Shown here: positions 11,635-34,141 of the stretch, one piece after another
Numbering within the stretch: the first letter of the stretch is position 1
Layout: every line of letters begins with the position of its first letter
Source of the DNA: an uncultured bacterium
Lineage (GTDB): Bacteria > Hydrothermota > Tepidihabitantia > Tepidihabitantales > Tepidihabitantaceae
NCBI GenBank assembly: GCA_964626075.1
Contig: CAZVDD010000018.1
Span: 18,189-82,188 of the forward strand
Direction of reading: 5' to 3'
DNA: 64,000 nt
The notes under the pieces: model-generated
The model's database searches: none
What the model was told of the DNA's origin: nothing
The model's input: the letters and a program-made list of their open reading frames with translations, nothing else
Program-made: the position numbers and the translations under genes

Positions 11635-11884
11635 TGTGCCTCCTTGAAAATCAACCTTCTCGGGAAATTTACCATAAAAAATTTACGACGCACGGACTGG
11701 ATTATACCCCGAAAATGTTTTGTGTCAATGAAAAACCCGTCAGATTCGGACGATTGACTTATGACAGTTCCAGTTGCATTCCAACGTGAAAATGCTTGTC
11801 ATCTTCCCCCGAAAACCTGGGAGCACCCTTATTTGACAAACACGGTAAGACTCTCTATCCTTCACTATCAAGGACAATCATCCG

Positions 11885-13444
11885 GTGCATAAATCGCTAA
11901 TCCTTTCTACCATCAGCCTTCCCTTTCTGATACTTTTCCTGCTACTACCATCGCGTCGTTACAACACCGATGGCTTTCGGGTCCTCGCCACACTTCACCG
12001 GGTAACAGTCAGTCCTGAAGGCACTAGACAGTTTACCCCTCTTAACTGGCAAACCGCCTACCAGCAACCTTACTACTTCCGCCAGAATGTCCAAAAACAT
12101 TTTTTATTTCCTATTTACGCCTACACCGCCTTCCGCATCTTTCGACTGTTCCGATACCAAGACAACGGCGTCAAACCATTGCAAACTGCCAACGCCATTT
12201 CTGCCACCATTACCCTGCTGTTGTTTGCTTTTCTTTTCACAACTCACTCCTACCCGCTTTCCACCGTAATCATCGCAACCTTGGGACTGGGTTTATCGAG
12301 CGCCTTTGCCGCCCAGGCAACCAACATCGCCGAGGTAGTGCCCGCAACAACCCCCTTGACACTGGCGCTTATTCTTATTGAAAAAAGAAAACCGTTTATC
12401 GCGGCGATTTTTCTCGGCATCAGCGCCGCCTTTTACCTTTTGTCCCTGTTTGTTGTCCCTTTTCTCATTTTATTGTTTTTGGGCCGAACACCGCGCCGCA
12501 TCCCGCTCTCCCTTCTTATCATCCCGCCCATAACAACTCTTTTCATCTATTTAACTGTCCTTATCCCTGCCGGCAACAAAAACCTGCAGGACCTCCTGAC
12601 CGCGCTCTTCTTTTTACCGGAACAGGGCACATTTGGCGGATTCAAACTGTCGAATTCCATCTCTACCCCGCTCGGCTTTATATCCAGTATCCTTCCCGTA
12701 CTCCCCGAAAACTTCTCCGGTATCAAAACCGCACTTGCCACCCGAAACCCGCCCCCACTCCTGCTATTAACCTCAATCATCATTGGCATTCTACTTCTGA
12801 CCCTGCCACTGCTAACGGCGCACAAAAAAGTGCAACGAACACCGGGCATCGCCCTGCTCATTACCAGTCTGGTCACCGCCCTCTTCTGGGACCCCTATCA
12901 TCAGAAAATCTGGCTCTATGGAGTTATCGGCTTCTGGCTTGTTCTTGCCCATCTCCGCCATTTACGCCTCTTCATTTTACTTATCCTGTTTATATTGATC
13001 CCGCTTAACATCAACGCCCTCATCAAAAACCACCAACCAAACCGAAAATGGCAAACCGCACAAAAACTTGCTCGCTTTCTACTTTTTGAACAACACCCCG
13101 GAAACAAAAAAGTTGTATTTGGTAACTGGGAACCGGAATTTGACTACCTCACCGCCTTTCTGCCCGACACCTGCCTTATCTCAATACCCGACCTCATCCT
13201 TGAAATTAGAAGAGACTCCAGCCGATTCCATTCAACAATTGACTCCATCAAACTGAGTTGTCCGGCAGCCGCAGTCTATTTTGTCAACACCTTCAACCGC
13301 ACCAAACAACAGTTAGAAAAGTTATATGTTCACCGCCTTAAATTCCCCTATATCCTCACCTGGCTGGAGAACCAGCGCCCTTTTACCCAGCCCTTATGGC
13401 ATGACTCGTTAACCGGCACCACCCTCTACCAGCTCTCCAATTAA
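11885..13444 (+). CDS. Polytopic integral membrane protein, function unknown (possibly GT-C-like glycosyltransferase)
   Basis: 519 aa with more than 10 hydrophobic segments; GTG start; no recognisable catalytic motif. Confidence 0.5.
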   Translation: MHKSLILSTISLPFLILFLLLPSRRYNTDGFRVLATLHRVTVSPEGTRQFTPLNWQTAYQQPYYFRQNVQKHFLFPIYAYTAFRIFRLFRYQDNGVKPLQTANAISATITLLLFAFLFTTHSYPLSTVIIATLGLGLSSAFAAQATNIAEVVPATTPLTLALILIEKRKPFIAAIFLGISAAFYLLSLFVVPFLILLFLGRTPRRIPLSLLIIPPITTLFIYLTVLIPAGNKNLQDLLTALFFLPEQGTFGGFKLSNSISTPLGFISSILPVLPENFSGIKTALATRNPPPLLLLTSIIIGILLLTLPLLTAHKKVQRTPGIALLITSLVTALFWDPYHQKIWLYGVIGFWLVLAHLRHLRLFILLILFILIPLNINALIKNHQPNRKWQTAQKLARFLLFEQHPGNKKVVFGNWEPEFDYLTAFLPDTCLISIPDLILEIRRDSSRFHSTIDSIKLSCPAAAVYFVNTFNRTKQQLEKLYVHRLKFPYILTWLENQRPFTQPLWHDSLTGTTLYQLSN

Positions 13445-13495
13445 CACCCGAACAACCGCTTGACCACGCTTTCGTTTTCGTTAGATTTAACCTGT

Positions 13496-14635
13496 ATGAA
13501 AATCCACGAATATCAGGCTAAACAGATTTTTGCCCAGGCGGGAATCCCAACTCCCCGCGAGGTAATGGTAAAGTCACCTCTGGAAGCAAAACAGGCAGCT
13601 GTTGCGGTCGGCATTCCTGCGGTACTCAAAGCCCAGGTCCTGGTTGGTGGCAGAGGCAAAGCCGGTGGTGTCAAACGCGTCGATCGATTTGAAGATGTCC
13701 AACCGACCGCCGAAACAATCCTCGGGATGTCAATAAAAGGGTTAAAAGTCACAAAACTCCTCGTCTCGGAATGTGTCCCGATTAAATCCGAGTTCTACCT
13801 CGGTATAACGATAGACCGTTCCGCACGGCAGCCGGTTCTACTCGCATCCGCCGCGGGTGGCGTTGAGATTGAAGAGGTAGCGAAAACCAGCCCGGAAAAA
13901 ATACTTAAGGCGGAAATCGACCCCATGCTCGGCATCCTCCAATTTCAAACCCGCAACATCGGCTTTTCCCTGTTCAACGACCTGAAATTGGCCAGCACCT
14001 TCAGCACCCTCTGCCAAAAACTGTACCAGATATTTGTCCAGCGCGACTGCTCGCTTGTGGAAATCAACCCGTTGGTATTAACAGACGCGGGCGCACTGCT
14101 TGCCTTGGACGCCAAAATCAACTTTGACGACAACGCCCTTTTCCGCCATCCCGAAAACGAAGCGTTACGTGACCCGGAAGGTGAAGAACCCAAAGAAATG
14201 GAAGCAAAAGCCGCCGGTCTTTCTTACATCAAACTCTCCGGCAATGTTGGCTGCATCGTCAACGGTGCTGGTCTGGCAATGGCGACGATGGATTTAATCA
14301 AACGCTACGGCGGCGAACCGGCAAACTTCCTTGATGTTGGTGGCTCATCATCACCCGAAAAGATGGTAACCGCGATGCGCATCATCCTCTCCGACCCCAA
14401 TGTTAAGGCAATCCTCGTCAACATCTTCGGCGGCATCACCCGCTGCGACGACATCGCCCAGGGGCTCATTGCCGCAACCGAGAAAGCCAAAATCAAAGTG
14501 CCCATTGTCGCCCGACTGGTGGGCACCAATGCCGAAAAGGCGTGTGCCCTGCTTGCCGATAGTCCGGTCTTAAGTGCCACCGGAATGAGTGAAGCGGTCA
14601 AACTGGCGGTTATTAAAGCAAAGGAGGCAAGATGA
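13496..14635 (+). CDS. sucC: Succinyl-CoA synthetase (ADP-forming) beta subunit
   Basis: MKIHEYQAKQIFAQAGIPTPRE... ATP-grasp SucC N-terminus; start moved to the internal Met. Confidence 0.88.
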   Translation: MKIHEYQAKQIFAQAGIPTPREVMVKSPLEAKQAAVAVGIPAVLKAQVLVGGRGKAGGVKRVDRFEDVQPTAETILGMSIKGLKVTKLLVSECVPIKSEFYLGITIDRSARQPVLLASAAGGVEIEEVAKTSPEKILKAEIDPMLGILQFQTRNIGFSLFNDLKLASTFSTLCQKLYQIFVQRDCSLVEINPLVLTDAGALLALDAKINFDDNALFRHPENEALRDPEGEEPKEMEAKAAGLSYIKLSGNVGCIVNGAGLAMATMDLIKRYGGEPANFLDVGGSSSPEKMVTAMRIILSDPNVKAILVNIFGGITRCDDIAQGLIAATEKAKIKVPIVARLVGTNAEKACALLADSPVLSATGMSEAVKLAVIKAKEAR

Positions 14636-15495
14636 GCATCCTGATTGACCAGAACACGCGATTGATTGTTCAGGGCATCACCGGCCGAGACGGCGCCTTT
14701 CACGCCCGATTGATGAAAGAGTATGGCACACAAGTTGTTGGTGGTGTAACCCCGGGCAAAGGTGGACAGGAGATTGAAGGCATACCGGTTTTCAACTCGG
14801 TTGCGGAAGCGGTCCAGACAACTGATGCCAACGCATCAATCATCTTTGTGCCTGCTAACTTTGCGGGCGATGCGCTACTCGAAGCGGCTTTCTCCGGTGT
14901 AGAACTTATCGTCTGCGTCACCGAAGGGGTCCCGGTCCTTGATGCAATCAAGGCAATTGCGGTCGCCCGAACCCGTGGCGTCCGGATTGTTGGTCCCAAC
15001 TGCCCCGGTGCAATTTCGCCCGGAAAGGCAAAAGTTGGGATAATGCCCGCTACCGCATTCCGGCCTGGGCCGGTCGGCATCGTTTCCCGTTCCGGAACCC
15101 TGACCTATGAGATTGCCGCCAACACCGGCAAGTTCGGTCAATCAACTGTGATCGGTATCGGTGGCGACCCGGTTATCGGCACAAACTTCATTGACTGCTT
15201 AAAAATGTTTCAGGACGACCCCGAGACCAAAGCAATTGTCATCGTGGGCGAGATTGGTGGTAGTGACGAAGAAAAGGCAGCCCAGTTTGTCCAACAATAT
15301 GTAAGAAAACCGGTATTCGGCTTCATCGCGGGTCAGACCGCGCCCCCAGACAAAAGAATGGGTCATGCTGGCGCCATCATATCTGCCGGTTCCGGCACCG
15401 CCCAAGAAAAGATTCGGGCGTTCCAGTCCGCAGGCATTGATGTTATCTACGAACCCGAGGAACTGGCAGAAAAACTTAAGGCAAGAATAATGTAA
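14632..15495 (+). CDS. sucD: Succinyl-CoA synthetase alpha subunit
   Basis: MSILIDQNTRLIVQGITGRDGAFHARLM...; CoA-binding and His-phosphorylation region; start overlaps the sucC stop. Confidence 0.9.
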   Translation: MSILIDQNTRLIVQGITGRDGAFHARLMKEYGTQVVGGVTPGKGGQEIEGIPVFNSVAEAVQTTDANASIIFVPANFAGDALLEAAFSGVELIVCVTEGVPVLDAIKAIAVARTRGVRIVGPNCPGAISPGKAKVGIMPATAFRPGPVGIVSRSGTLTYEIAANTGKFGQSTVIGIGGDPVIGTNFIDCLKMFQDDPETKAIVIVGEIGGSDEEKAAQFVQQYVRKPVFGFIAGQTAPPDKRMGHAGAIISAGSGTAQEKIRAFQSAGIDVIYEPEELAEKLKARIM

Positions 15496-15877
15496 CATTT
15501 TAGTAACCTGGTACTTAATCCATAAAACCCATAAGCCGGTTCAACAACCACGAGACCGTGCCTCAGATAGCCAAACCAGCATGAGGGCCTTTACAGTTCC
15601 CCAAAATCACCGCCCCTTACTCCATATCCGGTATTACAAATCAGAATCCGGAAAAGCAATCTCCAACTCACCCCTTAATTAAACCGGCTAACCAATCATC
15701 GAATCGCTCTGGGAACCGCTCCCTGAGTCGTTCCCTGACTCACTTCCTGAACCCTTTCCTGTATCCTATCTACCGACATTCGAATTGCAATATTAATTTT
15801 AACAACGCTTTTACCCTCGCCACGACAGAAAGAAACAGGAATAATTATAGAGAAAAAATGCAATTACCGAAAGCCTT

Positions 15878-17437
15878 CTATTTCACCCGTATTACCTTGC
15901 CGGTAAAATTTTTACCGTCTGCCGCAACGATAATGTAATAAACCCCTTCGGGCAACTGCTGGCTCATTTCATCTCTGCCATCCCACATAAAACTGTACCC
16001 GCCCGTTAATCTGACCCCATTACTCAACACCCTTATCTTCCTGCCCGACTGGTCAAATATATTTATTAAAACAGGACGGTTTAAGCCGAAGATGTTAATT
16101 GTGGTCCTTTCTTTGAAGGCAAACGGAAAGCAACGGACCCATCCAGCACTTTTGTTTTCTGCTTGTTCAGTGATACCGGTCAAGCGGTTGGTGGAAAACC
16201 AGATTTTTGCTTTGCCCGAGCGCATATCCTGCCAGACGATATAGGCACAACCTTCACCATCAACCGCAATACTCGGGTCCCATTGCTGAACCGAGGGCAT
16301 TAAACTCACGGGTTCCCTTTGCTGCCAGGTGAGCCCAAAGTCAGTTGAACTTGTATAATAGATATTCCAGATTTGATTCTGCCTCTCGGCAATCATCAAG
16401 GCAGTATGGACTGTACCTTGACGGTCTATTGCCAATTTTGCACCCTGAGTAAACGAACTGTAAATCGTATCCAGTTCAGTTACTAAAACCTGTTCACCCC
16501 AGGAGTCGCCCTGAACAAAATAGGTTCTCGCCATTGTGACTGATTGGTTGCTGCCAGTTCTGCCGCCGGTGTAATCGGTAATTATGTGTATTTCATCAGC
16601 AACGATATGGGGCATCCGGCAGTAAGCAGAAAATGTGTCCAGTTGAAACCCGGGTGAAAAACTCCTGCCCCTGTCGGATGATTTATAGAAATGAGAATGG
16701 AGCACAATCTGACTGCCCTGACGGACGGGCGCATCCGCTACTATTAAATAGTGATTTGTTCCTGGTTGTACAAAAACATCCGGCGGATAGCAATTAAAAG
16801 AGACGGTGTCATCGTCGACTCGGACATCAGTTCCCCAGGTTCTACCCCCATCGGTTGAAACATCGGCATAAACCCTCAAGTATGAACTTCGCTGGTCGGT
16901 CCAGGCACAGAAAAGGTTGTCTGCAGTATCAATCGCCAGTTTGACCCAGCCCACCGGCACCATCGAAGGATTGTCATCAACCTGCACCGGGTCTGTCCAG
17001 GTTTCACCCATATCGGTTGAGCGAACAAAATGGATATGCCCCCGACTGCCATCGACCCGGTCAACATAAATCAGATATACGGTTCCGTCTCGTGCCACCT
17101 GCAAATCTGGATAACAGGCAAACCGGTTTCCCCGCCGAACAATGATATTTTCACTGAGCCAGGTTCTGCCACCATCAGTTGACCGCTGAAATGCAATATC
17201 ACTTCGCTGAACGGTTAAAGGCACCGAATCGTCCTCAAATGCCACATAGATGGGTTGAACGCCAGCAGTATCAGGACCAATCGCAATCTCGGCATGATAG
17301 CAGGCGTAGTTTACTCTATTCTTCCAGTCAACCCGCACCGCAGGAATAAAATCGGCTCGACTGAAATTGAACAGGAGTAAAATGATGGTAGAGAAGAGAA
17401 AACGATTAATCAGGGTATGTCTGTTATAGTTACTCAC
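15878..17437 (-). CDS. Secreted BNR/Asp-box repeat beta-propeller protein (sialidase-like fold) with T9SS-type C-terminal sorting domain
   Basis: Five SxDxGxTW/F Asp-boxes (STDGGRTW twice, STDMGETW, SSDRGRSF, STDFGLTW); N-terminal signal peptide; C-terminal roughly 80 aa resemble a T9SS sorting domain (...GVYYIIVAADGKNFTGKVIRVK). Confidence 0.7.
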   Translation of the reverse strand: MSNYNRHTLINRFLFSTIILLLFNFSRADFIPAVRVDWKNRVNYACYHAEIAIGPDTAGVQPIYVAFEDDSVPLTVQRSDIAFQRSTDGGRTWLSENIIVRRGNRFACYPDLQVARDGTVYLIYVDRVDGSRGHIHFVRSTDMGETWTDPVQVDDNPSMVPVGWVKLAIDTADNLFCAWTDQRSSYLRVYADVSTDGGRTWGTDVRVDDDTVSFNCYPPDVFVQPGTNHYLIVADAPVRQGSQIVLHSHFYKSSDRGRSFSPGFQLDTFSAYCRMPHIVADEIHIITDYTGGRTGSNQSVTMARTYFVQGDSWGEQVLVTELDTIYSSFTQGAKLAIDRQGTVHTALMIAERQNQIWNIYYTSSTDFGLTWQQREPVSLMPSVQQWDPSIAVDGEGCAYIVWQDMRSGKAKIWFSTNRLTGITEQAENKSAGWVRCFPFAFKERTTINIFGLNRPVLINIFDQSGRKIRVLSNGVRLTGGYSFMWDGRDEMSQQLPEGVYYIIVAADGKNFTGKVIRVK

Positions 17438-17981: not shown

Positions 17982-20534
17982 CTAACCGGCTAATAGCAAA
18001 CGAAGGCTGTTGCTTTCGCAATGAGGGCAGGCGCGTTCTTCGGGCTGGCCCGGTGTCCAGTGATGAGTTGATTCTTTGCCGCAGCGGAGGCATACAAACG
18101 ACATCTCACCGGCAGTCTTGGGCTCAGTTCGTACGGCTACCCTGGGAGGATTACGAAGAATCTGCTTTGTCTGCTCAATCTCCTCTGGTGTCACCGACGC
18201 CCTGAGCCTTTCCAGTTCCCCCATTGTTTTGACAAACCGCGGTGCCTGCGCCGCAGAAATCCACTCCAGTTGCAGCCTTTCCGGTCGAATCCCCCACGCC
18301 TCAAGTTTGTCCCATAGTTTTTCGACCCGACGCTGGGTCTGCCGGTTAGCATTGAGGTAGTGGCAGTCCGCATAGTGACACCCCGAAACAAGAACGACCG
18401 GGGCCCCGAGTGCAAATGCTTTGAGCACAAACTTTTCAGCAACGCGGGCGCTGCACATCGTTCGAATCAAAACCTGTGTGGGTGGGTACTGCGACCGTGT
18501 CAGCCCAACCGTATCTGATGCCGCATAGGAGCACCAGTGGCAGGCAAACACAATCGCTTTCGACTCGGGTTCTTCTGCTAGCGCCGCCTCAATCTGAGCA
18601 ATAATCTGTTCGTCCGTGAACTGATGTGCCTCAATCGCCTCAAACCGACACTCTGCCGCACAATTGCCACAGCCGGCACAGACGGCATCAATCGCCTTTG
18701 CCGGCGCACCCCGTTGCCACTCGACCGCTTTAAATGTACAGACCGGTGCGCACATGCCACAAGCACGGCACTTATCGGTTATAACCTCCACCGTATTGGG
18801 CTCTGCCGCCAGTGAACTTTGTGCCAAAAGCCGCGCCGCTCGCCCCGCCGCCGCACTTGCCTGTGTCACCGAATCCTTGACATCTTTTGGTCCTTCGGCA
18901 CACCCGGCATAAAAAACCCCGCGTACTGGCGAATCAACCGGTTGCAGTTTCGGGTGTGCCTCAAGAAGGAAACCTTCCGGATGGATTTGCAGCGCCATAA
19001 GTTGTTGAATCGGCTTGGTCTCAGGCCTTGGTTTGACTCCGGTCGCCAGCACCACCAGTTCCGCGATGTGTTCTTCAACCTTACCGGTTTCGGTGTTTTC
19101 CACATAGAGTTTTAGATTGCCCGTTGCTTTATCTTCAATCACTTCACCTGGAATCCCGCGAATATATTTGACACCGAGGCGCCGGGAACGCCACAACATC
19201 TCTTCAAACCCTTTACTGAAGGCGCGTAGGTCGATGTAGAAAACTTTGATGTCCATATCCGGGTAATGCTCTTTAAGCACCAGACTGTCTTTAATTGTGT
19301 TCATACAACAGATGTTGCTACAGTAGGGCGTACCCTGTTGCACACAGCGCGAGCCGACACACTGAATAAAGGCGATGCTGTCCGGGCGCCGCCGGTCACT
19401 CAGCCGGATGAGTTCACCGCCAGTTGGTCCTCCCGAGGATGCCAGTCGCTCAAACTCCATTGCCGTTATCACATTTGCTGCCCGACCATAGCCGAATTCG
19501 GCGCGTGGCAACGGGTCAAACGGCTCCATTCCGGTAGCAACGATAATTGCACCCACCTCAAAGTTGAACTCTTTGTCCTGAGCGTTCAAGTCAATGCACT
19601 TCTTTTCGCACGCCTGAGCACATTTGCCACAGGCAATGGGGTTTAAGCCAAGACAGTCATCGGGATTGAGTACATAAGCCGCCGGAATCGCCTGCGGGAA
19701 CGGCTGGTAAATCGCATGTCTCAACCCAAGCCCTAAATTAAACTCATCCGGAACCAGTTGCGGGCAAACCTGGGCACATTCGCCACAGGCGGTGCACTCC
19801 CGCTCATCAACAAATCGCGCCTTCTGCCGAACCGTTACCTTAAAGTCACCAACATGACCGGCAACTTCTTTGACCTCGGCAAGGGTCAGGAGTTTGATTT
19901 TCGGATGCCGACCGACATCCGCCATCTTGGGCGCAAGTATTCATATCGCACAATCCATCGTCGGATAGGTTTTGTGCAACTGCGCCATCAACCCACCGAG
20001 CGAAGGTTGACGCTCCACCAGATATACCTGATGACCCGCATCTGCCAGGTCAAGACTCGCCTGAATCCCGGCAACACCACCGCCAATTACCAGCACCGCA
20101 TCCTTTATGGGGAAACGACGCGGGCTAAGCGGTTTCAGTGCCCGTGCTTTTGCCACCGCCATTCGAACCAGACTGCACGCCTTTTTCGTTGCCCGCTCCG
20201 GCTCAAGGGCATGAACCCAGGAACACCCTTCCCGGATGTTCACCATCTCCATAAGAAACGGATTCAAACCCGCCTGTGCCACGCAGGCACGAAAAGTAGG
20301 CTCGTGCATCCGTGGTGTGCAAGCCGCCACCACCACCCGATTGAGGTTGAATTCGGCAATCGCCTTCTGAATCTCCTTCTGCCCTGGTTCAGAGCAGTTG
20401 TAGAGGCTGGTTACCGCATAAACCACATCGGGTAAGGTTTTGACGTAATTCACCACCTCTTCGACATTGACGGTGCCGGCGATGTTGGTGCCGCACCGGC
20501 AGACAAACACGCCGATTCGCGTCTCTTGACTCAT
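17982..20534 (-). CDS. hdrA: Heterodisulfide reductase subunit A-like flavoprotein fused to a C-terminal MvhD/FlpD domain; selenoprotein with an in-frame UGA (Sec) at 19941-19943
   Basis: Track ORFs 19941..20534 and 17982..19925 are in the same frame, separated only by TGA plus five sense codons. N-terminal part has an HdrA-type Cys cluster ([10 protein letters not shown]), FAD Rossmann [19 protein letters not shown], and ...[15 protein letters not shown]...; the downstream part has ferredoxin CxxCxxCxxxCP motifs and an MvhD domain ([12 protein letters not shown]...RTMCSARV...[11 protein letters not shown]). Confidence 0.8.
19902..19921 (-). promoter_or_regulatory. Putative bacterial SECIS hairpin about 20 nt 3' of the in-frame UGA
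   Basis: mRNA reads CGGAUG-UCGGUCGG-CAUCCG: perfect 6-bp stem and 8-nt loop containing GGU, at bacterial-type spacing from the UGA. Confidence 0.5.
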
Positions 20535-20543
20535 CGCCTTATT

Positions 20544-22079
20544 CTACTCCTTATCGCTTATAAAATCAATTAAATTCACAATCCGCAGCGCATCTTTGTT
20601 ACCCCGGCTCAATTGGGCGCAGCGGAGATGAATTTCACACCTACTGCAGCCGGTAATAAGAGTTTCCGCATTTACCGCCTGCCACTCCTGCAAGCGCCGA
20701 TCCTGAAGCAGTCTTACCGCCGCTCCACATTCGAGCCACGATGTGCCCCCACAACACAACGCTTCGGTACGGTTATGCTCCATCTCAACCAGCTCAACCC
20801 CGTTGACTTCGGTAATCAACTGACGCGGCGCATCTTCTACCCCTAAATGTCTACTCAATCGGCACGGGTCATGGTAGGTAACCCGCAATCGCTTCCCATT
20901 GCCAATGGGCTTAAACCCGTGCTCCAGTAAGAACTCACTTATGTGTCTTAATCTCAACCCCAACAATCGGGTTCCGGCAATACGCGGGTAATCCAGTTTG
21001 AATGTCCGCAAACACTCCGGGCAGAGAAATACCACCTCTTTCACCCCTGCATCCTGCAATCTATCTAAGTTGTGCCGGGCAAGTTTCCTTACGGTACGGA
21101 CATCACCCATCCATAACAAATCGTGTCCGCAACAACGCTCATCAGAAAGCACCACCGGCTCAATTCCCAATCGGTTCATAATCCGTACCGCATTACGCAA
21201 TGTTTCAACTGGATTCACCCCCAATTCCTTAAACAGCACATCAAAATAAGGTGCGCATCCCGTCCAGAGGGCGGTTTCGCCTTTATCAACAACTCGCAGT
21301 TCAGCACCAACCCAGTCCCGCCGATTCTGAATCAAAGCCGTTTTTGCCATCATTCTACCCAACGTTTGCACAACACCATCGTGTGCCAGCACCGGCTGTG
21401 TTCCCTCCTGAAATGCTAGCGCCCTTAACCGCAACATCTCTTCCGCAATACTCTTTCCAGTGGGGCAAACTGTTTTACACATATCACACCCTAAACAGGC
21501 ATAAATGACCCTCGTATTCACAACCGTATTTTCGGTCAACGCCTTTTGCAGCAACCGCCGCGGTGAGAAACCAAGACCGGTTCGGGCGACCGGACACACT
21601 CCGCTACACCTACCACAGTCAATACATACAAAATCACTTTGTTTGACAACCTTTTCAAAATCTTTATCACCGCACTCCTGCTCTGAGTTAGCCGGTTGTT
21701 TGTTGAGAAACTTCTCTTTCACTCCCGCTGTTCTCACGAACAAATCATTAAACGAAACTGGTCCAGACACGGTAACGAATTGAACTTGTCCAGGATTAAA
21801 CCCCATCAGCTTTAAAATCTGCCGGCTCATTTCAACCTGTTTTCGGGCATTTTGTGCACCAATCTCGTGCCGGCACTCCTGCTCCAAACAACCGAAAAGT
21901 ACAACCCGGTCGGCACCATACTCAAAGGCACGCAATATCGAACCAGTTCCCACCTGACCGATACAGGTTACCCTCCGATACCCGAACCCGTTTTTCAACA
22001 AAAAATCTGCTGACACCTGCCCGGAAACCCGCTCACAGATGAAAGCAAAGCTTCTGATTAAAGGCGACTTACTTTCCAT
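20544..22079 (-). CDS. FlpD/MvhD-like domain fused to HdrC-like 2x[4Fe-4S] ferredoxin and HdrB-like CCG domains (HdrD-like fusion)
   Basis: N-terminal MvhD-like region (FICERVSG...RVTCIGQV...VLFGCLEQECRH), CIDCGRCSGVCP and CLGCDMCKTVCP clusters, then CCGHD and CCGG cysteine-rich (CCG) motifs. Confidence 0.75.
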   Translation of the reverse strand: MESKSPLIRSFAFICERVSGQVSADFLLKNGFGYRRVTCIGQVGTGSILRAFEYGADRVVLFGCLEQECRHEIGAQNARKQVEMSRQILKLMGFNPGQVQFVTVSGPVSFNDLFVRTAGVKEKFLNKQPANSEQECGDKDFEKVVKQSDFVCIDCGRCSGVCPVARTGLGFSPRRLLQKALTENTVVNTRVIYACLGCDMCKTVCPTGKSIAEEMLRLRALAFQEGTQPVLAHDGVVQTLGRMMAKTALIQNRRDWVGAELRVVDKGETALWTGCAPYFDVLFKELGVNPVETLRNAVRIMNRLGIEPVVLSDERCCGHDLLWMGDVRTVRKLARHNLDRLQDAGVKEVVFLCPECLRTFKLDYPRIAGTRLLGLRLRHISEFLLEHGFKPIGNGKRLRVTYHDPCRLSRHLGVEDAPRQLITEVNGVELVEMEHNRTEALCCGGTSWLECGAAVRLLQDRRLQEWQAVNAETLITGCSRCEIHLRCAQLSRGNKDALRIVNLIDFISDKE

Positions 22080-23934
22080 CGCTACCGGTAAAAACTGCCG
22101 CCGCTAATTTGAAAGAACTCTGGAGTGCACCGCTCGGACAAACAGGTAAACAGTTACCGCATCCCCGACAGCGCTGGTTGTCAACGACCGCAACCTGAAT
22201 ACCTGAATACCACACCTGCCTGCTAATCGCCTCATGGGGACAAATCTCAACACACCTTCCACATCCGCGACACAACTCCTTCTCTACTTTAACAACCAAA
22301 GGCTGAATTACCGCTGGAATTGTCTCGTTCCCTCTGCCGACATTAACTTGTAACTCCACCGCCAGTTCTTCAACATTATCGGGCAAAACAGTTTCCAGGG
22401 AATGAATCCGCATTATCACCGAATCAGATTTGTCAACAGTCTGGACTACCACCTGATGTTTCGGACAGGTCCGATGGCAGCGAATACATTCCCCACAAAA
22501 ACCACACCGTAAACAGCGCTCCGCCTCCTGAACCGCCTGCTCCGGTGTTAACGGTGCCTCAACCTCGGCAAAGATGTTTCGCTTTTCGGGCGCCAGGAGT
22601 CCTAACTTTACCCTGCTCTTGGGCACCGCGGTTAGAACCGGCACCTGAACTTCAAGTTGCACTTCAGAAACTGCTACCGTCTCATCTTGGTTGCTGATAA
22701 ATTTATGAATCGCCTTTGCACCCCGATGACCACTGGCGATGGCATCAATCACCGTTGCCGGGCCACTTGCCGCATCGCCCCCGACAAAAACCCCAACGGG
22801 CAATTGATTTACATCCTTTTCCACCTTCTGGCCCAGTGCGGTGATAACCCAATTAGCACCAATCACAAAAAGCGAATCCGGAATCGGTACCGGTTTTCTC
22901 CGCCCCGACTCATCGGGCGCGCCCAGCGTATTTCGGACACATTTCAATCCGGTAACCTTGCCATCCTTATAAACAAACTCTACCGGCTGGGTCAGATACT
23001 CAATTCTGACACCCTCTGCCTCTGCCTGGGAAATCTCCTCTTCATCGGCAGGCATTTCTGTTCTGCTTCGGCGGTAAACAATCCAAACCTCTTCAGCCCC
23101 TAACCGCTTTGCCACTCTTGCGGCGTCAATCGCCGAATTTCCACCGCCAATCACCAGCACCCTACCAAGCAAATTTTTAATATCACCGGAAAACGCCCTT
23201 TTCAAAAATGAAAGCGCATCAATCACTCCGGTAAGTTCATCCTCCAAAGCCAGCCCCAGAGTCAAGCTTTTCTGACAACCCGGAGCATAAAACACCGCCG
23301 CATAACCATCTTTTAGAAGTTGTGCCGGCTCGTCAATTTTTGTTCTGGTAAAAATTTCCACTCCCAATCCGAGAATGGAGTCAATCTCCTGTTCAATAAC
23401 CGACCGAGGCAGACGAAAAGGCGGAATACCCCATAACAGCATACCACCAGGTTTTTCCTGTGCCTCAAAAATCGTCACCTGATACCCTAACCGAATTAGG
23501 TCGTTTGCCGCAGTCAAACCCGCCGGACCAGCACCGACAACCGCCACGCGTTGCGGCTGTTTAACGGTGTCTTTTGGTAATGCCGCCTGGGGTTGATTGA
23601 CCGCATAATCGGCGATGAAACGTTTCAGGGCTCTGATTGCGACCGGTTCATCCAATTCCGCCCGACGGCACTCTTTCTCACAGGGATGGGTACAAACGCG
23701 GCCGCAGATTCCAGGAAAAGGATTGGTCTGTCGCACCACTTCCAGCGCCTGGACAAATTTGCCGGCGGCAATTAACCCAACATAAGCCTTGACATTAACA
23801 CCAGCCGGACAGGCAACCCGACAGGGCGACGGTGGCGCCGGCACGATTTGAAACTCCCGCTCCCCAACTCGTAAACTCGCCCCCTTCCCATAAAGCATCT
23901 CCTTGAAACTCAGCCGTTCCTTTGCCGTGTTCAC
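22069..23934 (-). CDS. GltD/NfnB/SudA-family NAD(P)H-dependent FAD oxidoreductase with C-terminal extra [4Fe-4S] ferredoxin domains
   Basis: N-terminal CRVACPAGVNV...ICGRVCTHPCEKEC Fe-S motif, two Rossmann motifs (VAVVGAGPAGLTAANDL; VLVIGGGNSAIDAA), C-terminal CRGCGRCVEICP/CRGCGNCLPVCP. Confidence 0.8.
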   Translation of the reverse strand: MNTAKERLSFKEMLYGKGASLRVGEREFQIVPAPPSPCRVACPAGVNVKAYVGLIAAGKFVQALEVVRQTNPFPGICGRVCTHPCEKECRRAELDEPVAIRALKRFIADYAVNQPQAALPKDTVKQPQRVAVVGAGPAGLTAANDLIRLGYQVTIFEAQEKPGGMLLWGIPPFRLPRSVIEQEIDSILGLGVEIFTRTKIDEPAQLLKDGYAAVFYAPGCQKSLTLGLALEDELTGVIDALSFLKRAFSGDIKNLLGRVLVIGGGNSAIDAARVAKRLGAEEVWIVYRRSRTEMPADEEEISQAEAEGVRIEYLTQPVEFVYKDGKVTGLKCVRNTLGAPDESGRRKPVPIPDSLFVIGANWVITALGQKVEKDVNQLPVGVFVGGDAASGPATVIDAIASGHRGAKAIHKFISNQDETVAVSEVQLEVQVPVLTAVPKSRVKLGLLAPEKRNIFAEVEAPLTPEQAVQEAERCLRCGFCGECIRCHRTCPKHQVVVQTVDKSDSVIMRIHSLETVLPDNVEELAVELQVNVGRGNETIPAVIQPLVVKVEKELCRGCGRCVEICPHEAISRQVWYSGIQVAVVDNQRCRGCGNCLPVCPSGALQSSFKLAAAVFTGSDGK

Positions 23935-24497
23935 GCCCGCCTCTTTTCTTTTCCAACCTGATACCCCTTCTCCAGCGCAATAAGATTTTTTTCCAGGAGT
24001 CGCGCCGGCAGTATGTCCTGAACCGCTTTAATTAGAGCCTCCTTGGGCACAATGCCGGTCACCGCAACCAAAAATCCAAGCATCACCATATTGGCATACA
24101 TCCGATTCCCAAGCCCCTCGGCAATTCTTGTCGCCGGAATGGCAAACTCCTTGACCCGGCCCAGGTGGTTATGCGGTCGTACCAGATTTTCCTCCCAGAT
24201 GAGCACGCCGTCATCCTTCAATGTGGGCTCAAACTTTTCATAGGCTTCTTGGGACATTGCCACTAAAATGTCCGGCGCTGTCAGATAAGGATAAAGCACC
24301 CGCTCCTCAGAAATAATCAACTGTGCCGAACAGGCACCCCCTCGCGCCTCGGGCCCGAAACTTTGCGTCAAGGTGGCATACTTATTATCATAAAGCGTTG
24401 CAGCACGGCCTAACACCATCCCCATCATTATAATGCCCTGGCCGCCAAATCCGGAAAGTTTAATCTCCATCTTCCATTGGTCCTTGATACGGGACAA
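23931..24497 (-). CDS. korC: 2-oxoacid:ferredoxin oxidoreductase gamma subunit
   Basis: 188 aa with GFGGQG pyruvate/ketoisovalerate oxidoreductase gamma-domain signature. Confidence 0.8.
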   Translation of the reverse strand: MSRIKDQWKMEIKLSGFGGQGIIMMGMVLGRAATLYDNKYATLTQSFGPEARGGACSAQLIISEERVLYPYLTAPDILVAMSQEAYEKFEPTLKDDGVLIWEENLVRPHNHLGRVKEFAIPATRIAEGLGNRMYANMVMLGFLVAVTGIVPKEALIKAVQDILPARLLEKNLIALEKGYQVGKEKRRA

Positions 24498-25350
24498 ACT
24501 TTTCGCCCACAGTCGTGCGCAAAAATTGGTTCATAATCTCGAGGTAAGTGGGCTGTTGCTTCTGAACAAACCTTCCAACAACGATTGGACCTTGATAGGT
24601 TATTTCGCACTCCCGGGTGTCAATATCGTTCCTGACGACCGACCTTTCCTTATAATACTTCACAATCTCAAGGCCCGAGCCCAACTGATTGCGCCGGCCA
24701 TAAACCGTCGGGCAGGGCGAAATCACCTCAACAAAACTGAATCCCGAGTGCATTAAAGCCTCTTTGAATGCTTGTGTCATCTGTCGGACATGAAGCACAG
24801 TCCAGCGTGCCACATAGGTTGCCCCGCAGGAGTCAACAAGAAATGGAATGTTAAACGGGTGCTCAAAACTGCCGTAAGGCGCCGTCGTCAACTTCGCGCC
24901 CTGGGGTGTCGTTGGGCCAAACTGACCGCCCGTCATCGCATAGTTGAAATTGTTTACACAGATTACGGTCAAATCCATATTGCGCCGCGCTGCATGAATA
25001 AGGTGGTTACCGCCAATCGACACCAAATCACCGTCGCCGGAGATAATCACCACCTTCAGTTGCGGATTGCCCAATTTTAAACCAATCGCAAACGGTATCG
25101 CCCGGCCATGGGTGGTGTGAAACGAATCAAGGTTTACATAACCAGCGGCGCGGCCCGTGCAACCGATACCGGACACAACTACCAAATCCTGCCGGGGAAT
25201 GGCACTCTCCCGCACCGCCGTCAGAAAAGAGTTCAAAACGATACCCAGACCACAGGTCGGACACCAGATATGGGGTATGCGGTCCACCCTTAACAGGTCG
25301 TCAAGCGGGTGCTGTTCCAGCCCGGCGATATTGACCGTCGCTTCACTCAT
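24460..25350 (-). CDS. korB: 2-oxoacid:ferredoxin oxidoreductase beta subunit (TPP-binding)
   Basis: GIGCTGRAAGY..GDGD TPP-binding motif, 296 aa. Confidence 0.85.
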   Translation of the reverse strand: MSEATVNIAGLEQHPLDDLLRVDRIPHIWCPTCGLGIVLNSFLTAVRESAIPRQDLVVVSGIGCTGRAAGYVNLDSFHTTHGRAIPFAIGLKLGNPQLKVVIISGDGDLVSIGGNHLIHAARRNMDLTVICVNNFNYAMTGGQFGPTTPQGAKLTTAPYGSFEHPFNIPFLVDSCGATYVARWTVLHVRQMTQAFKEALMHSGFSFVEVISPCPTVYGRRNQLGSGLEIVKYYKERSVVRNDIDTRECEITYQGPIVVGRFVQKQQPTYLEIMNQFLRTTVGEKFVPYQGPMEDGD

Positions 25351-26501
25351 CGCGCACTCTCCATTATCGCCTCAAAGATGTCTTTCGGGTCATGAACCCA
25401 ACCACCACAATGGGGAACATGTCGCGTCTGCGCCCAACCCCCCACCACCCTTTGCAGCTCCAGATACACCTGACCCAAATTTATCTCGGGCATAACAAAC
25501 GCCTTTACTCTCTTTGCCAGTTGTTTAATCTTACTTTCCGGGAAGGGCCAGACCGTAATCAACCGCAACATCCCGACCTTCACACCGCGTGCCCGGGCGT
25601 CTTCAATCGCCTTGAACGCCACCCGGGCACTGATTCCGTAAGCGACAACAACCACCTCGGCGTCGTTTAGTTGGTACTCATCTACGATAACTATTTTCTC
25701 CCGATTCTTGCGGATTTTTTCAACCAGATGGGTAACGCACCAGTTCTGACACTCGGCATTTATCACCGGATAACCCCGTTCATCATGGGTCAATCCGGTA
25801 ATATGAATCCGGTAATCCTTTCCTGCCCGGACCATCGCGGGTACACCATCCTCCTCGGGTTTAAAAGGGCGATACTGTTCTCGCGGACCACGATACCACC
25901 TTCTTGGTACCAAACGGATTTTATCTGGCTCCGGGATGACCACCTTTTCGGTCATATGGCCTACACATTCATCCATCATAAACAAAACCGGGACTCGGAA
26001 TTGCTCGGCGAAATTAAAACAGGTAATCGTCAAATCGAAACACTCCTGTGGTGAAGCCGGTGCCAGAGCGATAATCTCATAATCCCCGTGCGAACCCCAC
26101 CGGGCTTGCATCATATCTTGCTGCCCGGTTAAAGTGGGTAATCCAGTTGAAGGACCACCCCGCTGGACATTAACTACGACACAGGGGGTTTCAGTCATCA
26201 CCCCGAGCCCGATATTCTCCTGCATCAACGAAAAACCAGGACCCGAGGTAACAGTCATCGCTTTAGTTCCTGCCCATGCTGCGCCCAGCACCGCCGCAAT
26301 TGAAGCCAGTTCATCTTCCATCTGAATAAATGTACCGCCAACCATCGGGAACCGCTGGGCAATTCGTTCCGCAATCTCGGTGGAAGGGGTTATTGGGTAC
26401 CCGGCAAAAAAACGACAGCCAGCCGCAATCGCCCCCTCAGCACAGGCGTGGTCACCATCAAGAAAATGTGCTCCGGTCAGCACAACATCACTGTTCCTCA
26501 C
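25347..26501 (-). CDS. korA: 2-oxoacid:ferredoxin oxidoreductase alpha subunit
   Basis: 384 aa, FAGYPITPSTEI... canonical alpha-subunit N-terminus. Confidence 0.85.
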   Translation of the reverse strand: MRNSDVVLTGAHFLDGDHACAEGAIAAGCRFFAGYPITPSTEIAERIAQRFPMVGGTFIQMEDELASIAAVLGAAWAGTKAMTVTSGPGFSLMQENIGLGVMTETPCVVVNVQRGGPSTGLPTLTGQQDMMQARWGSHGDYEIIALAPASPQECFDLTITCFNFAEQFRVPVLFMMDECVGHMTEKVVIPEPDKIRLVPRRWYRGPREQYRPFKPEEDGVPAMVRAGKDYRIHITGLTHDERGYPVINAECQNWCVTHLVEKIRKNREKIVIVDEYQLNDAEVVVVAYGISARVAFKAIEDARARGVKVGMLRLITVWPFPESKIKQLAKRVKAFVMPEINLGQVYLELQRVVGGWAQTRHVPHCGGWVHDPKDIFEAIMESAR

Positions 26502-26787
26502 CTGTGCCCCCGGTCATTACCTTCTCGGATTCCTGGTCCGGCGTTGTCCAGATGGCGAATTCGGCACAGATAGCAGTACACAATCCGCAATCAACGCAAC
26601 GCTCAGGGTATTTGACAATCGGAGGGTGATAACCCCGCCGATTGAAATCGGTTGACGCTTCAAGCACCTGTTTCGGACAAAAGGTAATACAGAAACCGCA
26701 TCCCTTGCATCGCTCAATCAGGATGTGAACAATACCGTGGGGTGGCTTCTTTTGCTCCGCATCTAAAGGTTTGCGCCACAGTTTCAT
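26488..26787 (-). CDS. korD: 2-oxoacid:ferredoxin oxidoreductase delta subunit (2x[4Fe-4S] ferredoxin)
   Basis: 99 aa with CKGCGFCITFCP and CVDCGLCTAICA clusters; first gene of the string. Confidence 0.8.
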   Translation of the reverse strand: MKLWRKPLDAEQKKPPHGIVHILIERCKGCGFCITFCPKQVLEASTDFNRRGYHPPIVKYPERCVDCGLCTAICAEFAIWTTPDQESEKVMTGGTGEEQ

Positions 26788-27020
26788 CGATGTAGAAAGT
26801 TGATTATAAAAGTTAAATTTGGAGGGTCAAGAAAATCTGCCGGCAGGCACAAATCACAAAAACGTTCTTGGGGGAAAAGCCCGCTAACTGATAAATTCGA
26901 TAACTCGTTTTATGGCATAACATTCTTACATTTCAGTATGACTCTATCTCATCCTTGACTTCGCTTCGCACCTTCCTAAAATAAATTTGGTCGGATATAA
27001 GACCGAACTTTGTGACCGAT

Positions 27021-30919: not shown

Positions 30920-31654
30920 CTACTCTTCCGGCTCAAACTGGTCCTTGCTCGCGCCACAAACCGGGCAGACCCACTCTGGAGGTAAACTCTCAAAAGGTGT
31001 ACCAGCCGGTACCCCGTTGTCCGGGTCACCTTCTGCCGGGTCGTAAACATAACCGCAAACTGTGCAAACATAGCGTTGCATCTTGCTCTCCTTTGTTTTA
31101 CTCTCTTTACTAACTCCCGCCAACCTTTCCTGCTCTTTTTGCGGCTGATAGGTCGGCGCGCCCTTACCGGTTTTCCCCTTCTTAACCTCGTGATAATAGG
31201 CATAAGTGAGCGGTTCACCCTGCTTCACCCATTTTGCCATCACCACTTCACCGACAAATTGCGTATGGGTCACACAGTCTACCTTTTCCCGCACCCTTGC
31301 CTCCATGACCACAATCGCATGCTCGGTAATCAGTGGTACACCGGTTTCGCCCCTCTCGTAACTAAGCCCTTCAAACTTGTTCACATCTCGACCGGAGCGA
31401 AAACCAAATCGGCCGATAAACTCAATAGGTGTCTCTTTTTCGAGAACGGTCACCGCAAATACCCCGCTCTTTTGAATCAATTCATGGGTAAAACTCGCCT
31501 TGTTGATCGCCACCGTAACCAGACACGGTTCCAGCGCCACCTGAACAACGGTATTCACCGTCAATCCATTGATTTGCTCTCCCGCCCGGCTCGTAACAAT
31601 GTAAAGACCGTAGGTTAAACTATTCAGGGCACTTAAATCGACTTTTCCCGCCAT
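30920..31654 (-). CDS. Flavin reductase-like domain fused to C-terminal rubredoxin (high-molecular-weight rubredoxin, Hrb-like)
   Basis: N-terminal flavin-reductase fold ([20 protein letters not shown]...); C-terminal [15 protein letters not shown]...[14 protein letters not shown] rubredoxin. Confidence 0.75.
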
Positions 31655-32854: not shown

Positions 32855-32872
32855 AAGATGCTCCGTTAAAAA

Positions 32873-33418: not shown

Positions 33419-33423
33419 AACAG

Positions 33424-33801
33424 TCAGACTCCTTTCCACAAACTATGAATATTGCAGTACTCCCGGGCATAAACCGTTTTTGCCTCAACCGAGAAAAACG
33501 CCTCAGGTTTATCTCCCGGGTAAAGAAACTGCCGATAAGCACGCTCATCTGCTATCAGCTCTATCCATTCGATATAATGCTTCTCCTCCATGGGATGGGG
33601 CACGCTGCCGACTTTGACCAGATAACCCTGAGCGGTTTTTTCAATTACCGGCACATGCTTCTCTTTTGCCGCATCGGTTGTATTTTCAATTAGAAGTTTC
33701 ATCGGCTGACCGCAACAGACCAGTTGGCCTGCGCCGCCCTGAAGAACTTCCACAATATTTCCGCAAACTTCGCACTTATAAATCTCTAATTTCTTAGCCA
33801 T
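33424..33801 (-). CDS. dfx: Desulfoferrodoxin (2Fe superoxide reductase)
   Basis: N-terminal desulforedoxin motif CEVCGN...CCG; SOR domain with HVPVIE...H...C. Confidence 0.85.
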
Positions 33802-33821
33802 TTATACCTCCTTTTTATTTT

Positions 33822-34127: not shown

Positions 34128-34141
34128 GTATCAATCTCCTT

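Follow-up and report, generated by a model that had tools for sequence, protein, structure and literature searches.

On the minus strand of a 64,000-nucleotide stretch of DNA from an uncultured bacterium (contig CAZVDD010000018.1, positions 18,189 to 82,188), referred to here as the window, we describe a string of seven genes that joins a four-subunit 2-oxoacid:ferredoxin oxidoreductase (OFOR; korDABG) to three further redox proteins: a GltD-like flavoprotein, a fusion of FlpD-, HdrC- and HdrB-like domains (FlpD-HdrD), and a selenocysteine (Sec)-containing HdrA fused to MvhD. This string is an uncharacterised and widely conserved Hdr-type variant dedicated to Kor, and the finding is real and non-random. 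Judged from sequence comparison, the arrangement lies far beyond chance, as its gene order and strand recur even in relatives whose anchor-protein identity falls as low as 33-42%. We lean, with slightly better than even confidence, towards one soluble, reversible HdrA-based system of electron bifurcation or confurcation that would link NADPH, KorDABG and a substrate bound at the CCG site of the HdrD-like protein. The domain inventory from which this reaction is deduced, the conservation of the gene string, and the competing readings are laid out below, with the coordinates of all features collected in Table 1.

From position 26787 to 17982, the minus strand is an unbroken string of open reading frames (ORFs) in the order korD, korA, korB, korG, GltD-like gene, FlpD-HdrCB and hdrA. 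A first-pass annotation of the same DNA had counted eight genes. Its strand, ORFs and coordinates are right, as are the overlapping or near-abutting boundaries it quoted (22069-22079, 23931-23934 and 24460-24497), and each of its domain calls was verified by Pfam, NCBIfam and PDB alignment. The gene number is seven, because an in-frame UGA splits hdrA and the last two of the eight ORFs read through as one 850-aa protein. The successive junctions from korD to hdrA measure -14, -4, -38 (or -11), -4, -11 and +9 nt, the bracketed value applying if korG starts at the alternative ATG at 24470 chosen in the Joint Genome Institute (JGI) gene call, which yields a protein of 179 aa. The next gene downstream of hdrA is 89 nt away. 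The promoter-like site ahead of korD has a single counterpart of equal quality on the minus strand of the region, an 11/12 sigma-70-like match at 17960-17933, just past the hdrA stop codon, so that the two sites bracket the seven genes. Overlaps, promoter-like site and synteny together suggest that the seven genes are likely one transcription unit. None of the encoded proteins has a strongly hydrophobic 19-residue stretch (the highest Kyte-Doolittle 19-mer among them scores 1.84), which fits a soluble system; membrane anchoring and quinone coupling of the operon proteins were ruled out on the same grounds.

Table 1. Positions of the operon genes and associated features in the window (1 is the first letter of the 64,000-nucleotide stretch).
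Feature	Position	Strand	Basis or description
korD, delta subunit, 99 aa, 2x[4Fe-4S]	26488..26787	-	Fer4_7 and other Fer4 families
korA, alpha subunit, 384 aa	25347..26501	-	POR_N and PFOR_II (Pfam)
korB, beta (thiamine pyrophosphate, TPP) subunit, 296 aa	24460..25350	-	TPP_enzyme_C (Pfam)
korG, gamma subunit, 188 aa	23931..24497	-	POR family (Pfam)
GltD/NfnB/StnC/DsrL-like Fe-S flavoprotein, 621 aa	22069..23934	-	Fer4_20, Pyr_redox_2 and C-terminal Fer4 (Pfam)
FlpD(MvhD-like)-HdrC-like-HdrB-like fusion ('FlpD-HdrD'), 511 aa	20544..22079	-	FlpD, Fer4_8 and 2x CCG (Pfam)
Sec-HdrA-MvhD-Zn-ribbon, 850 aa including predicted Sec198	17982..20534	-	Alignment with 5odc_A and 5odc_D; NCBIfam HdrA2
hdrA as two in-frame ORFs	20534-19941 and 19925-17982	-	TGA at 19943-19941 in between
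UGA, predicted selenocysteine (residue 198)	19941..19943	-	Motif DCAI-U-ILAPK; aligns with Cys197 of 5odc_A
SECIS-type hairpin GGAUGUCGGUCGGCAUCC	19903..19920	-	7-bp stem, GGUC loop, starts 23 nt after the U of UGA
Promoter-like site TTGACC-16-TATAAT	26803..26830	-	11/12 consensus match, 16 nt upstream of korD start
sucC and sucD (succinyl-CoA synthetase)	13460..15495	+	Convergent neighbour, outside the operon

The window is identical to two JGI metagenome contigs, the source samples being JGI 3300010308 and 3300017449, and its closest named relatives are metagenome-assembled genomes (MAGs) of candidate division WOR-3. To follow the operon further, one genome per species was scanned with an alignment of FlpD-HdrD, which gave 80 loci, all from MAGs or single-cell assemblies, onto which the window proteins were mapped by tblastn; frequencies among loci picked in this way, by similarity to FlpD-HdrD, are biased. 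Similarly, the best 120 homologues of the 511-aa protein and of the 621-aa protein included no cultured carrier and came from metagenomes or MAGs throughout. WOR-3 relatives that share the order are 42-75% identical, and the seven-gene string is intact amid changed flanks in those whose FlpD-HdrD is 54%, 51% and 42% identical. Of the 49 loci whose upstream flank extends for 7 kb or more, 35 have three or more kor genes upstream on the same strand, and the order kor, flavoprotein, FlpD/HdrD, HdrA-MvhD is maintained in 35 of the 49 loci with enough flank. An HdrA2-type gene (at least 50% identity) follows downstream in 27 of the 31 kor-positive loci with room for it, versus one of 13 kor-negative loci. 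The earlier annotation had named loss of the kor-hdr adjacency in relatives as the result that would overturn its proposal, and these counts show the adjacency to be kept. The titles of kor-positive records name WOR-3, Cytophagia, Phycisphaerales/Planctomycetales (Planctomycetota), Chloroflexota (Anaerolineae, Dehalococcoidia), Zixibacteria, Neomarinimicrobiota (Marinimicrobia), Calditrichia, Ignavibacteria, Gemmatimonadota and Desulfobacterales/Deltaproteobacteria, amounting to about nine phylum-level labels.

Clustering of the ORFs of the window region and 44 kor-linked loci returned the families of the operon itself, a free-standing FlpD (26 loci) and an occasional sucC; no extra partner, such as a thiol carrier or a TfrA-like flavoprotein, was recurrent. 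Sets of FlpD-HdrD, HdrA and GltD-like genes also occur without kor, in Dehalococcoidia and archaea. For instance, the Dehalococcoidia MAG JAGHCA010000044 (loci L007/L022) has HdrA, FlpD-HdrD, an NfnA-like gene (DHODB_Fe-S_bind) and an NfnB-like gene next to NiFe-hydrogenase and formate-dehydrogenase-like genes, with no kor; the FlpD-HdrD fusion therefore also serves other Hdr assemblies. In a WOR-3-related MAG (L005, 13394-19533), the operon is followed by a canonical hdrC-hdrB-hdrA and a gene of more than 1400 aa for a GltD/HdrA-like fusion, a second Hdr system in tandem.

The modules of the operon have been fused and split in several ways. In WOR-3, FlpD forms one polypeptide with HdrD. A Neomarinimicrobiota MAG (L040, 773 aa) has it at the C-terminal end of the GltD-like protein, as do roughly 40 of the 120 homologues nearest to that protein, and it stands alone in the 26 loci mentioned above; in one further MAG, FlpD, HdrD and the Zn ribbon each have their own gene. 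Such fusion and fission classically mark proteins that touch, and speak for a physical complex. The GltD-like protein of the Chloroflexota and Desulfobacterales versions is longer, at 950-1200 aa, with added HdrA-derived segments. Elsewhere, another protein occupies its place: those at L015 (6471-9839) and L028 (6779-9844) contain an in-frame TGA of their own close to the N-terminus, plus an additional Pyr_redox_2 segment, and similar replacements are found in L012, L041, L044, L046, L047, L049, L051-L053, L060, L065, L066, L071, L073 and L084.

The largest protein of the operon has every part expected of an HdrA. Its alignment covers the whole of M. wolfeii HdrA (5odc_A, 735 bits) and continues into MvhD (5odc_D), and the protein comprises the N-terminal Fe-S domain, the thioredoxin-reductase-like FAD domain, the inserted and C-terminal ferredoxin domains and the ligand equivalent to Cys197. 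With Sec scored as Cys, it reaches 1121.4 bits against the HdrA2 model NF040770 (cut-off 1100), which places it with HdrA2 (type Ia HdrA), and its C-terminal MvhD part matches FlpD with an E value of 3e-39 (134 bits). By homology to HdrA, the 850-aa protein would be the bifurcating flavoprotein of the system. The HdrA-MvhD description of the first-pass annotation is borne out, with the addition of a C-terminal Zn ribbon that it had missed: residues 813-845 give a weak Zn_ribbon_8 match, and the CxxC...CxxC ribbon spans window positions 17985-18122 (minus strand), HdrA residues ~805-850. In other lineages, the ribbon is a separate ORF of 50-55 aa right after hdrA (L009, 11594-11755; L028, L049 and L060), which makes it a conserved eighth component.

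The UGA within hdrA stands at the position of HdrA Cys197, a residue that serves as ligand to the partner protomer's N-terminal cluster (PMC9012536). Across the fetched loci, this position is TGA in 76 distinct sequences and TGT or TGC in 24; natural Cys-type versions of the operon include L023, L032, L042 and L075. Downstream of it lies a hairpin of the bacterial selenocysteine insertion sequence (SECIS) type, GGAUGUCGGUCGGCAUCC, whose stem can be extended in the window by an outer C-G pair. Its consensus, GGAUGYCGGUCGRCAUCC, was seen in every Sec-type sequence inspected among a set of 40, while the inspected Cys-type homologues have no such hairpin. In the alignment of Sec-type genes, 94% of cells are paired and one pair varies among U-A, U-G and C-G (32/22/21); the mean minimum free energy is -16.0 kcal/mol for the 76 Sec-type versus -10.2 kcal/mol for the 24 Cys-type sequences (Mann-Whitney p = 2e-8). 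This nearly invariant hairpin is common to genes of HdrA and of HdrA-like selenoproteins (L004-L089) in records with many phylum-level labels, and has no matching family in Rfam 15. With a UGA aligned to Cys and a hairpin downstream, hdrA has the marks of a bacterial selenoprotein gene and its Sec codon is real, as the earlier annotation had called it. A frameshift or pseudogene as the cause of the split was rejected on four counts: the shared frame, the motif-matched TGA in 76 sequences, the Cys codons elsewhere and the hairpin. No gene of the Sec machinery was found in the 64-kb window, where the only tRNAs are tRNA-Glu and tRNA-Leu.

The 511-aa protein has kept all of its cluster motifs. 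In its FlpD part (61 bits), C15, C39, C64 and C69 are retained wherever the domain is present (14 of 17 aligned sequences). All 17 share, without variation, the HdrC-like 2x[4Fe-4S] motifs (C152-C162, C195-C205) and the two CX(n)CCX(n)CXXC motifs, C275/C316-C317/C353/C356 and C406/C442-C443/C478/C481. The protein thus combines the HdrB and HdrC motifs of an HdrD-type fusion with an MvhD/FlpD [2Fe-2S] module, and the intact HdrB motifs favour a disulfide as the substrate of the CCG site. An AlphaFold model with a mean predicted local distance difference test (pLDDT) score of 80 matched EtfD (9ojn), LutA, HdrB (TMt 0.62-0.65) and MvhD (5odc_D) in Foldseek; the best NCBIfam matches, TfrB, LdhH and GlpC, each lie far under their cut-offs.

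In the 621-aa GltD-like protein, an Fe-S domain at the N-terminus is followed by Rossmann folds for FAD and NADP, then by a linker rich in Cys (C474-C490) and finally by a 2x[4Fe-4S] domain at the C-terminus; 9bov_A, StnC (8oh5_C, residues 102-697) and NfnB (4ylf_B, 260 bits; 5jca_L) are its best PDB matches. It retains the GxGxxG motif for FAD, the GGGNxAxDxAR NADP fold and an invariant Y287-R288-R289. This YRR triplet binds the 2'-phosphate of NADPH in NfnB, and the YRR-bearing DsrL-2 is strictly NADP(H)-dependent (PMC7596348); by this motif, NADPH would be the nucleotide partner here as well. K104 takes the place of the NfnB cluster ligand E117, as Lys170 does in StnC, and Lys49 is likewise invariant. 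The flavin of StnC was reported to be non-bifurcating, StnC acting as the NADPH input module (PMC10482914). The linker motif CX2CX2CX2CX2CX3C (474-490) is invariant, and eight more Cys are found at 555-599. The C-terminal ferredoxin domain is most like that of HdrA (5odc_A residues 571-638), which takes electrons from MvhD in the solved complex (PMC9012536).

The kor genes encode the alpha, beta, gamma and delta subunits together, as in a four-subunit OFOR. Against NF006412 ('2-oxoacid:acceptor oxidoreductase subunit alpha', cut-off 411), KorA reaches 579 bits; in the PDB, it is closest to 1yd7_A and 8ys5_A ('2-oxoglutarate synthase subunit alpha'). For KorB, the best NCBIfam and PDB matches are beta subunits of 2-oxoglutarate:ferredoxin oxidoreductase (OGOR), with 6n2n among the solved relatives; KorD matches OGOR_delta best, under its cut-off, and KorG reaches 203 bits against NF006323 (cut-off 235). 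In general terms, the OGOR-specific models are best or near-best for Kor yet stay under their cut-offs, and the OFOR-type PadG, PadI and PadE models match KorA, KorB and KorG weakly. The family assignment is complemented by sucCD, which adjoins the operon convergently here, in L006 and in L009, and lies directly upstream on the same strand in L012 and L034, sucC recurring in five loci of the ORF clustering. This recurrent neighbourhood ties the system to the 2-oxoglutarate/succinyl-CoA/succinate segment of metabolism, and the substrate of Kor is probably 2-oxoglutarate/succinyl-CoA. The earlier annotation had listed sucCD and thiolase genes nearby; the positions of both are correct, and sucCD recurs in several loci, whereas the two thiolase-like genes (9304-11634) have no conserved link to the operon. 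Since the thiolase/DUF35 genes are not conserved beside the operon elsewhere, they were discarded as part of the system. In some genomes, a second, more distant kor-like operon adjoins the Hdr-linked one (L010, 1479-4130 on the minus strand beside 5292-14095 on the plus strand; L072, 548-3010 beside 3225-16293). These second operons are 33-52% identical and have no hdr linkage, which suggests that the Hdr-linked Kor is a specialised paralogue.

Taken together, these parts can be arranged into one electron-transfer path, in which complex formation and bifurcation at HdrA are postulated by homology with Mvh/Fdh-Hdr and Stn. (i) Input: the GltD/StnC/DsrL-like protein would exchange hydride with NADP(H) at its FAD and pass single electrons through its N-terminal clusters, the Cys-rich linker and the C-terminal 2x[4Fe-4S] domain to the MvhD/FlpD-type [2Fe-2S] modules. 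(ii) Bifurcation: the MvhD/FlpD modules would hand these electrons to HdrA's C-terminal ferredoxin domain and FAD, the input place held by the MvhAG hydrogenase or Fdh in methanogens, and the HdrA flavin would split the electron pair. (iii) Output: one branch would take the HdrC-like clusters and end at the pair of non-cubane CCG clusters in the HdrD-like half, where a disulfide or another high-potential substrate would be reduced; the exit of the other, at about -500 mV, would be HdrA's inserted ferredoxin domain, from which it would reach Kor via free ferredoxin or directly via KorD. The net, reversible reaction would be 2 NADPH + X-S-S-Y + Fd(ox)/Kor <-> 2 NADP+ + 2 thiols + Fd(red). Kor would interconvert succinyl-CoA + CO2 and 2-oxoglutarate + CoA, and SucCD would connect succinyl-CoA with succinate and ATP; run in reverse, oxidation of 2-oxoglutarate and of thiols would yield NADPH. 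The first-pass annotation had proposed a coupling of ferredoxin and NAD(P)H to a CCG-site substrate, and the verified domains and synteny lead to the same scheme. The direction of flow appears evenly balanced between NADPH-driven synthesis of 2-oxoglutarate and its oxidation to make NADPH: NADPH specificity and the methanogen and symbiont precedents (discussed below) favour synthesis, and a proteolytic, fermentative context (a C25 peptidase, an aminotransferase, and sucCD for substrate-level phosphorylation) favours oxidation. As a more tentative extension, which we consider possible with a good deal of doubt, KorD might hard-wire Kor to the point where low-potential electrons leave an NADPH-fed HdrA, free ferredoxin taking no part; the result would be an 'NADPH- and disulfide-dependent 2-oxoglutarate synthase/oxidase' complex working on a bacterial thiol/disulfide or sulfane-sulfur couple.

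Several observations weigh against this scheme or one of its parts, the biased choice of loci among them. At the level of the operon, the total of sigma-70-like matches in the region is no higher than in shuffled controls, so the bracketing by promoter-like sites is only suggestive, and a terminator scan of the region gave nothing convincing, with counts at shuffle level. About half of the kor-linked loci have a second HdrA-like selenoprotein of ~1000 aa instead of the GltD-like protein, so that NADPH is perhaps not the universal partner. The N-terminal domain of the GltD-like protein has Ile30 and Ala33 in place of the distal-cluster residues C39 and C42 of NfnB; the replacement of NfnB ligands and the extra Cys motif of the linker make it uncertain how many clusters the protein has and of which type. 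Among the NCBIfam Kor models, just the generic 2-oxoacid one exceeds its cut-off, which leaves specificity for 2-oxoglutarate no more than probable. No thiol/disulfide carrier gene is conserved beside the operon in the 44 kor-linked loci, which leaves the third substrate purely hypothetical. Along the same lines, the closest structural matches of the CCG protein are EtfD and then LutA, ahead of HdrB, and the nearness of the first two weighs on the disulfide reading because the same fold serves non-disulfide reactions there.

The last two points lead to an alternative that we regard as unlikely, namely that the three-way coupling is as proposed while the CCG subunit acts on something other than a disulfide: an organic acid of the kind handled by LutABC, the persulfide or lipoate-bound sulfur of sHdr, polysulfide, or a carrier relay (as in EtfD and GlpC). 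Besides the structural ranking and the missing carrier gene, the TfrB, LdhH and GlpC models point this way, far under cut-off as they are, and the hosts are bacteria, in which CoM-S-S-CoB is not expected. Against it, both HdrB-type CX(n)CCX(n)CXXC motifs are intact and invariant, the proteins have no transmembrane segment for quinone chemistry, and the operon has no LutB/C, GlpA/B or TfrA-type partner dehydrogenase subunit. A simpler scheme, quite unlikely in our judgement, would have no bifurcation at all: a DsrL/PadH-like flavoprotein would link Kor and NADP(H) in either direction, as a linear NADP+-dependent 2-oxoglutarate oxidoreductase, with the Hdr proteins as wiring or scaffold. The NADH-dependent phenylglyoxylate dehydrogenase PadEFGHI has just such a composition, OFOR subunits plus a GltD-like subunit, and the weak Pad matches of KorA, KorB and KorG agree with it. 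So does the DsrL architecture of the GltD-like protein, as DsrL is a plain NAD(P)H:acceptor oxidoreductase for an Fe-S enzyme (PMC7596348), and the StnC-like Lys104 points to a non-bifurcating flavin (PMC10482914). Mere wiring is hard to credit, however, because a complete HdrA with its Sec/Cys197 ligand and both CCG motifs are strictly conserved in the records sampled. Moreover, about 200 mV would be lost if electrons from Kor, at about -500 mV, went straight to NADP+, and reduction of Kor by NADPH alone would be endergonic.

It is also conceivable, and in our view very unlikely, that Kor and the Hdr/GltD proteins are merely co-transcribed and share a ferredoxin pool, the block having been inherited or horizontally transferred. 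The kor-free sets of Dehalococcoidia and archaea and the second kor-like operons without an hdr link in L010 and L072 would suit such uncoupled modules. Yet the HdrA2-type orthologue occurs almost only with kor, order and strand outlast deep divergence while the flanks change, and korG overlaps the GltD-like gene by 4 nt. The bifurcating system that couples NADPH, Kor and a CCG-site substrate remains the reading we prefer.

OGOR needs or delivers electrons near -500 mV, and their supply or disposal in anaerobes without an obvious system for reducing ferredoxin is a recurring gap in metabolic reconstructions of uncultured phyla. If the preferred reading is true, a new combination of donor and acceptor would join the short list of flavin-based bifurcating enzymes, a bacterial 'heterodisulfide' not yet known would be indicated, and the annotation of non-methanogen 'hdr' genes would change, including the Mvh-Hdr reading of WOR-3 (PMC12542636). 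The hard-wired complex, if true, would be a widespread, previously unrecognised enzyme across many phyla, by which NADPH would drive the hardest carboxylation of the reductive branch of the tricarboxylic acid (TCA) cycle in anaerobes, or the excess reducing power of 2-oxoglutarate oxidation would be recovered. The operon is a testable target, consisting of soluble proteins only, with a minimal seven-gene form in WOR-3.

Outside the operon, the window gives some impression of the host. A flavin reductase-rubredoxin fusion, a flavodiiron protein, a ferritin-like protein, a peroxiredoxin and rubrerythrin (30920-35229, minus strand) form an oxygen- and peroxide-defence cluster, which fits a strict anaerobe. 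Two proteins encoded on the minus strand end in a FlgD_ig-type domain, a BNR-repeat protein (15878-17437) and a 1333-aa C25 (gingipain-type) peptidase (41244-46436), the latter adjacent to a PorV-like gene; these ends and the PorV-like gene point to type IX-like protease secretion. Two DUF35/ChsH2-type OB-fold zinc-ribbon genes stand in a row with the two thiolase-like genes (8211-11634, minus strand) and resemble thiolase/DUF35 condensing-enzyme sets. On the plus strand, a 519-aa ORF with no Pfam match (11885-13444) ends 16 nt before sucC and is called on the JGI contigs too. Over positions 1-64000, the GC skew is negative in each 2-kb bin (cumulative -5.5) and the minus strand holds most genes; the window probably lies within one replichore, with the plus strand as the lagging-strand template.

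Among known systems, the Hdr complexes of methanogens, MvhADG-HdrABC and Fdh-Hdr-Fmd/Fwd (5odc, 7bkb, 8rvu), share with the operon an HdrA that is alike end to end, including the Cys197 position, the path from the MvhD [2Fe-2S] cluster to the HdrA C-terminal ferredoxin domain, and clusters of HdrC and HdrB type. In 7bkb and the Hdr-Vhu-Fwd assembly (PMC13518236), a ferredoxin-dependent enzyme of CO2 reduction receives the low-potential branch by direct wiring, a parallel to Kor here. Unlike these complexes, which take electrons from H2 or formate, the operon would use NADPH via the GltD-like protein; it has Kor instead of Fmd/Fwd, fuses HdrB and HdrC, adds an extra FlpD domain, and belongs to a bacterial host. 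HdrA2B2C2 of Methanosarcina acetivorans has a type Ia HdrA with the same C-terminal MvhD fusion (PMC12054007). Its donor is F420H2 and its HdrB2 and HdrC2 are separate, whereas here the partner is the FlpD-HdrC-HdrB fusion and HdrA has a Zn ribbon and Sec. As the operon contains no separate hdrB or hdrC and no F420-related gene, it is not an HdrA2 system in its partners. A survey of WOR-3 genomes treats kor and hdr separately, and reads hdr as an Mvh-Hdr that reacts with the CoB-CoM heterodisulfide (PMC12542636).

The GltD-like protein has its own set of relatives. With StnABC and NfnAB (8oh5, 4ylf; PMC10482914), it shares the FAD and NADPH folds, the YRR triplet and, at the place of StnC Lys170, Lys104, and as in Stn, it may be an NADPH input module feeding a separate bifurcating module. 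It matches residues 102-697 of StnC only, without the NuoG/FdhF-like domains of StnC, and the bifurcating module would be HdrA instead. The operon includes neither StnAB (HydBC-like; NuoE/NuoF-like) genes nor an NfnA-like gene (PyrK-like, [2Fe-2S] and FAD), so it is neither StnABC nor NfnAB. DsrL is organised alike: its N-terminal Fe-S domain precedes an FAD domain in which the NAD(P) fold is embedded, and ~100 aa of linker lead to a 2x[4Fe-4S] ferredoxin domain at the C-terminus; the YRR is shared with DsrL-2 (PMC7596348). Its authors noticed DsrL-like genes next to OFOR genes and deliberately excluded them (PMC7596348). The GltD-like gene stands directly beside OFOR genes, its linker has the invariant six-Cys motif, and no dsrAB was seen in the window; overall, the protein is not counted as a DsrL.

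Associations of HdrA with GltD/NfnB-like units are on record as HdrL of Desulfobacterium autotrophicum (PMC2702500), HdrA9-11 of ANME-1 (PMC9012536) and 'type III HdrA' (PMC12054007). In these Hdr modules and in the FlxABCD-HdrABC system of Desulfovibrio, all dependent on pyridine nucleotides, a GltD/NfnB-like or FNR-like unit replaces the hydrogenase, as it would here, and many are selenoproteins. None is described with kor, and the GltD-like protein of WOR-3 is a separate polypeptide; long fusions of GltD with HdrA fragments do exist in the Chloroflexota and Desulfobacterales versions of the operon. FlxA, FlxB and FlxC homologues are missing from the operon, which shares with FlxABCD-HdrABC only the MvhD-like and Hdr parts.

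The earlier annotation had called the module undescribed. This holds for the composition: no description of kor with a GltD-like protein, FlpD-HdrD and HdrA2 was found in the searchable literature, of which full-text coverage is incomplete. It does not hold for the idea of Hdr-type bifurcation embedded in kor genes, as the reductive TCA clusters of tubeworm symbionts and Thioflavicoccus mobilis contain a co-expressed hdrCB-korDABC-hdrA-flxDCBA (Rubin-Blum et al. 2019, PMC6315080); in the authors' proposal, OGOR is supplied with low-potential electrons by a bifurcating Flx-Hdr complex. Thus, every module and the general idea have precedents, and the system is not categorically new. The hdrCB-korDABC-hdrA-flxDCBA of the symbionts is the nearest published parallel. 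Both clusters place a four-subunit kor amid HdrA, an MvhD-like protein (FlxD in the symbionts), CCG proteins (HdrBC) and an input module for pyridine nucleotides. In the symbionts, NADH enters through FlxABC, HdrB and HdrC are separate and encoded upstream of kor, and the neighbours include tfrAB and acl; here, one GltD/StnC/DsrL-like NADPH flavoprotein would be the input, HdrB and HdrC are fused with FlpD downstream of kor, tfrAB and acl are not adjacent, and HdrA has the HdrA2-type MvhD fusion with Sec.

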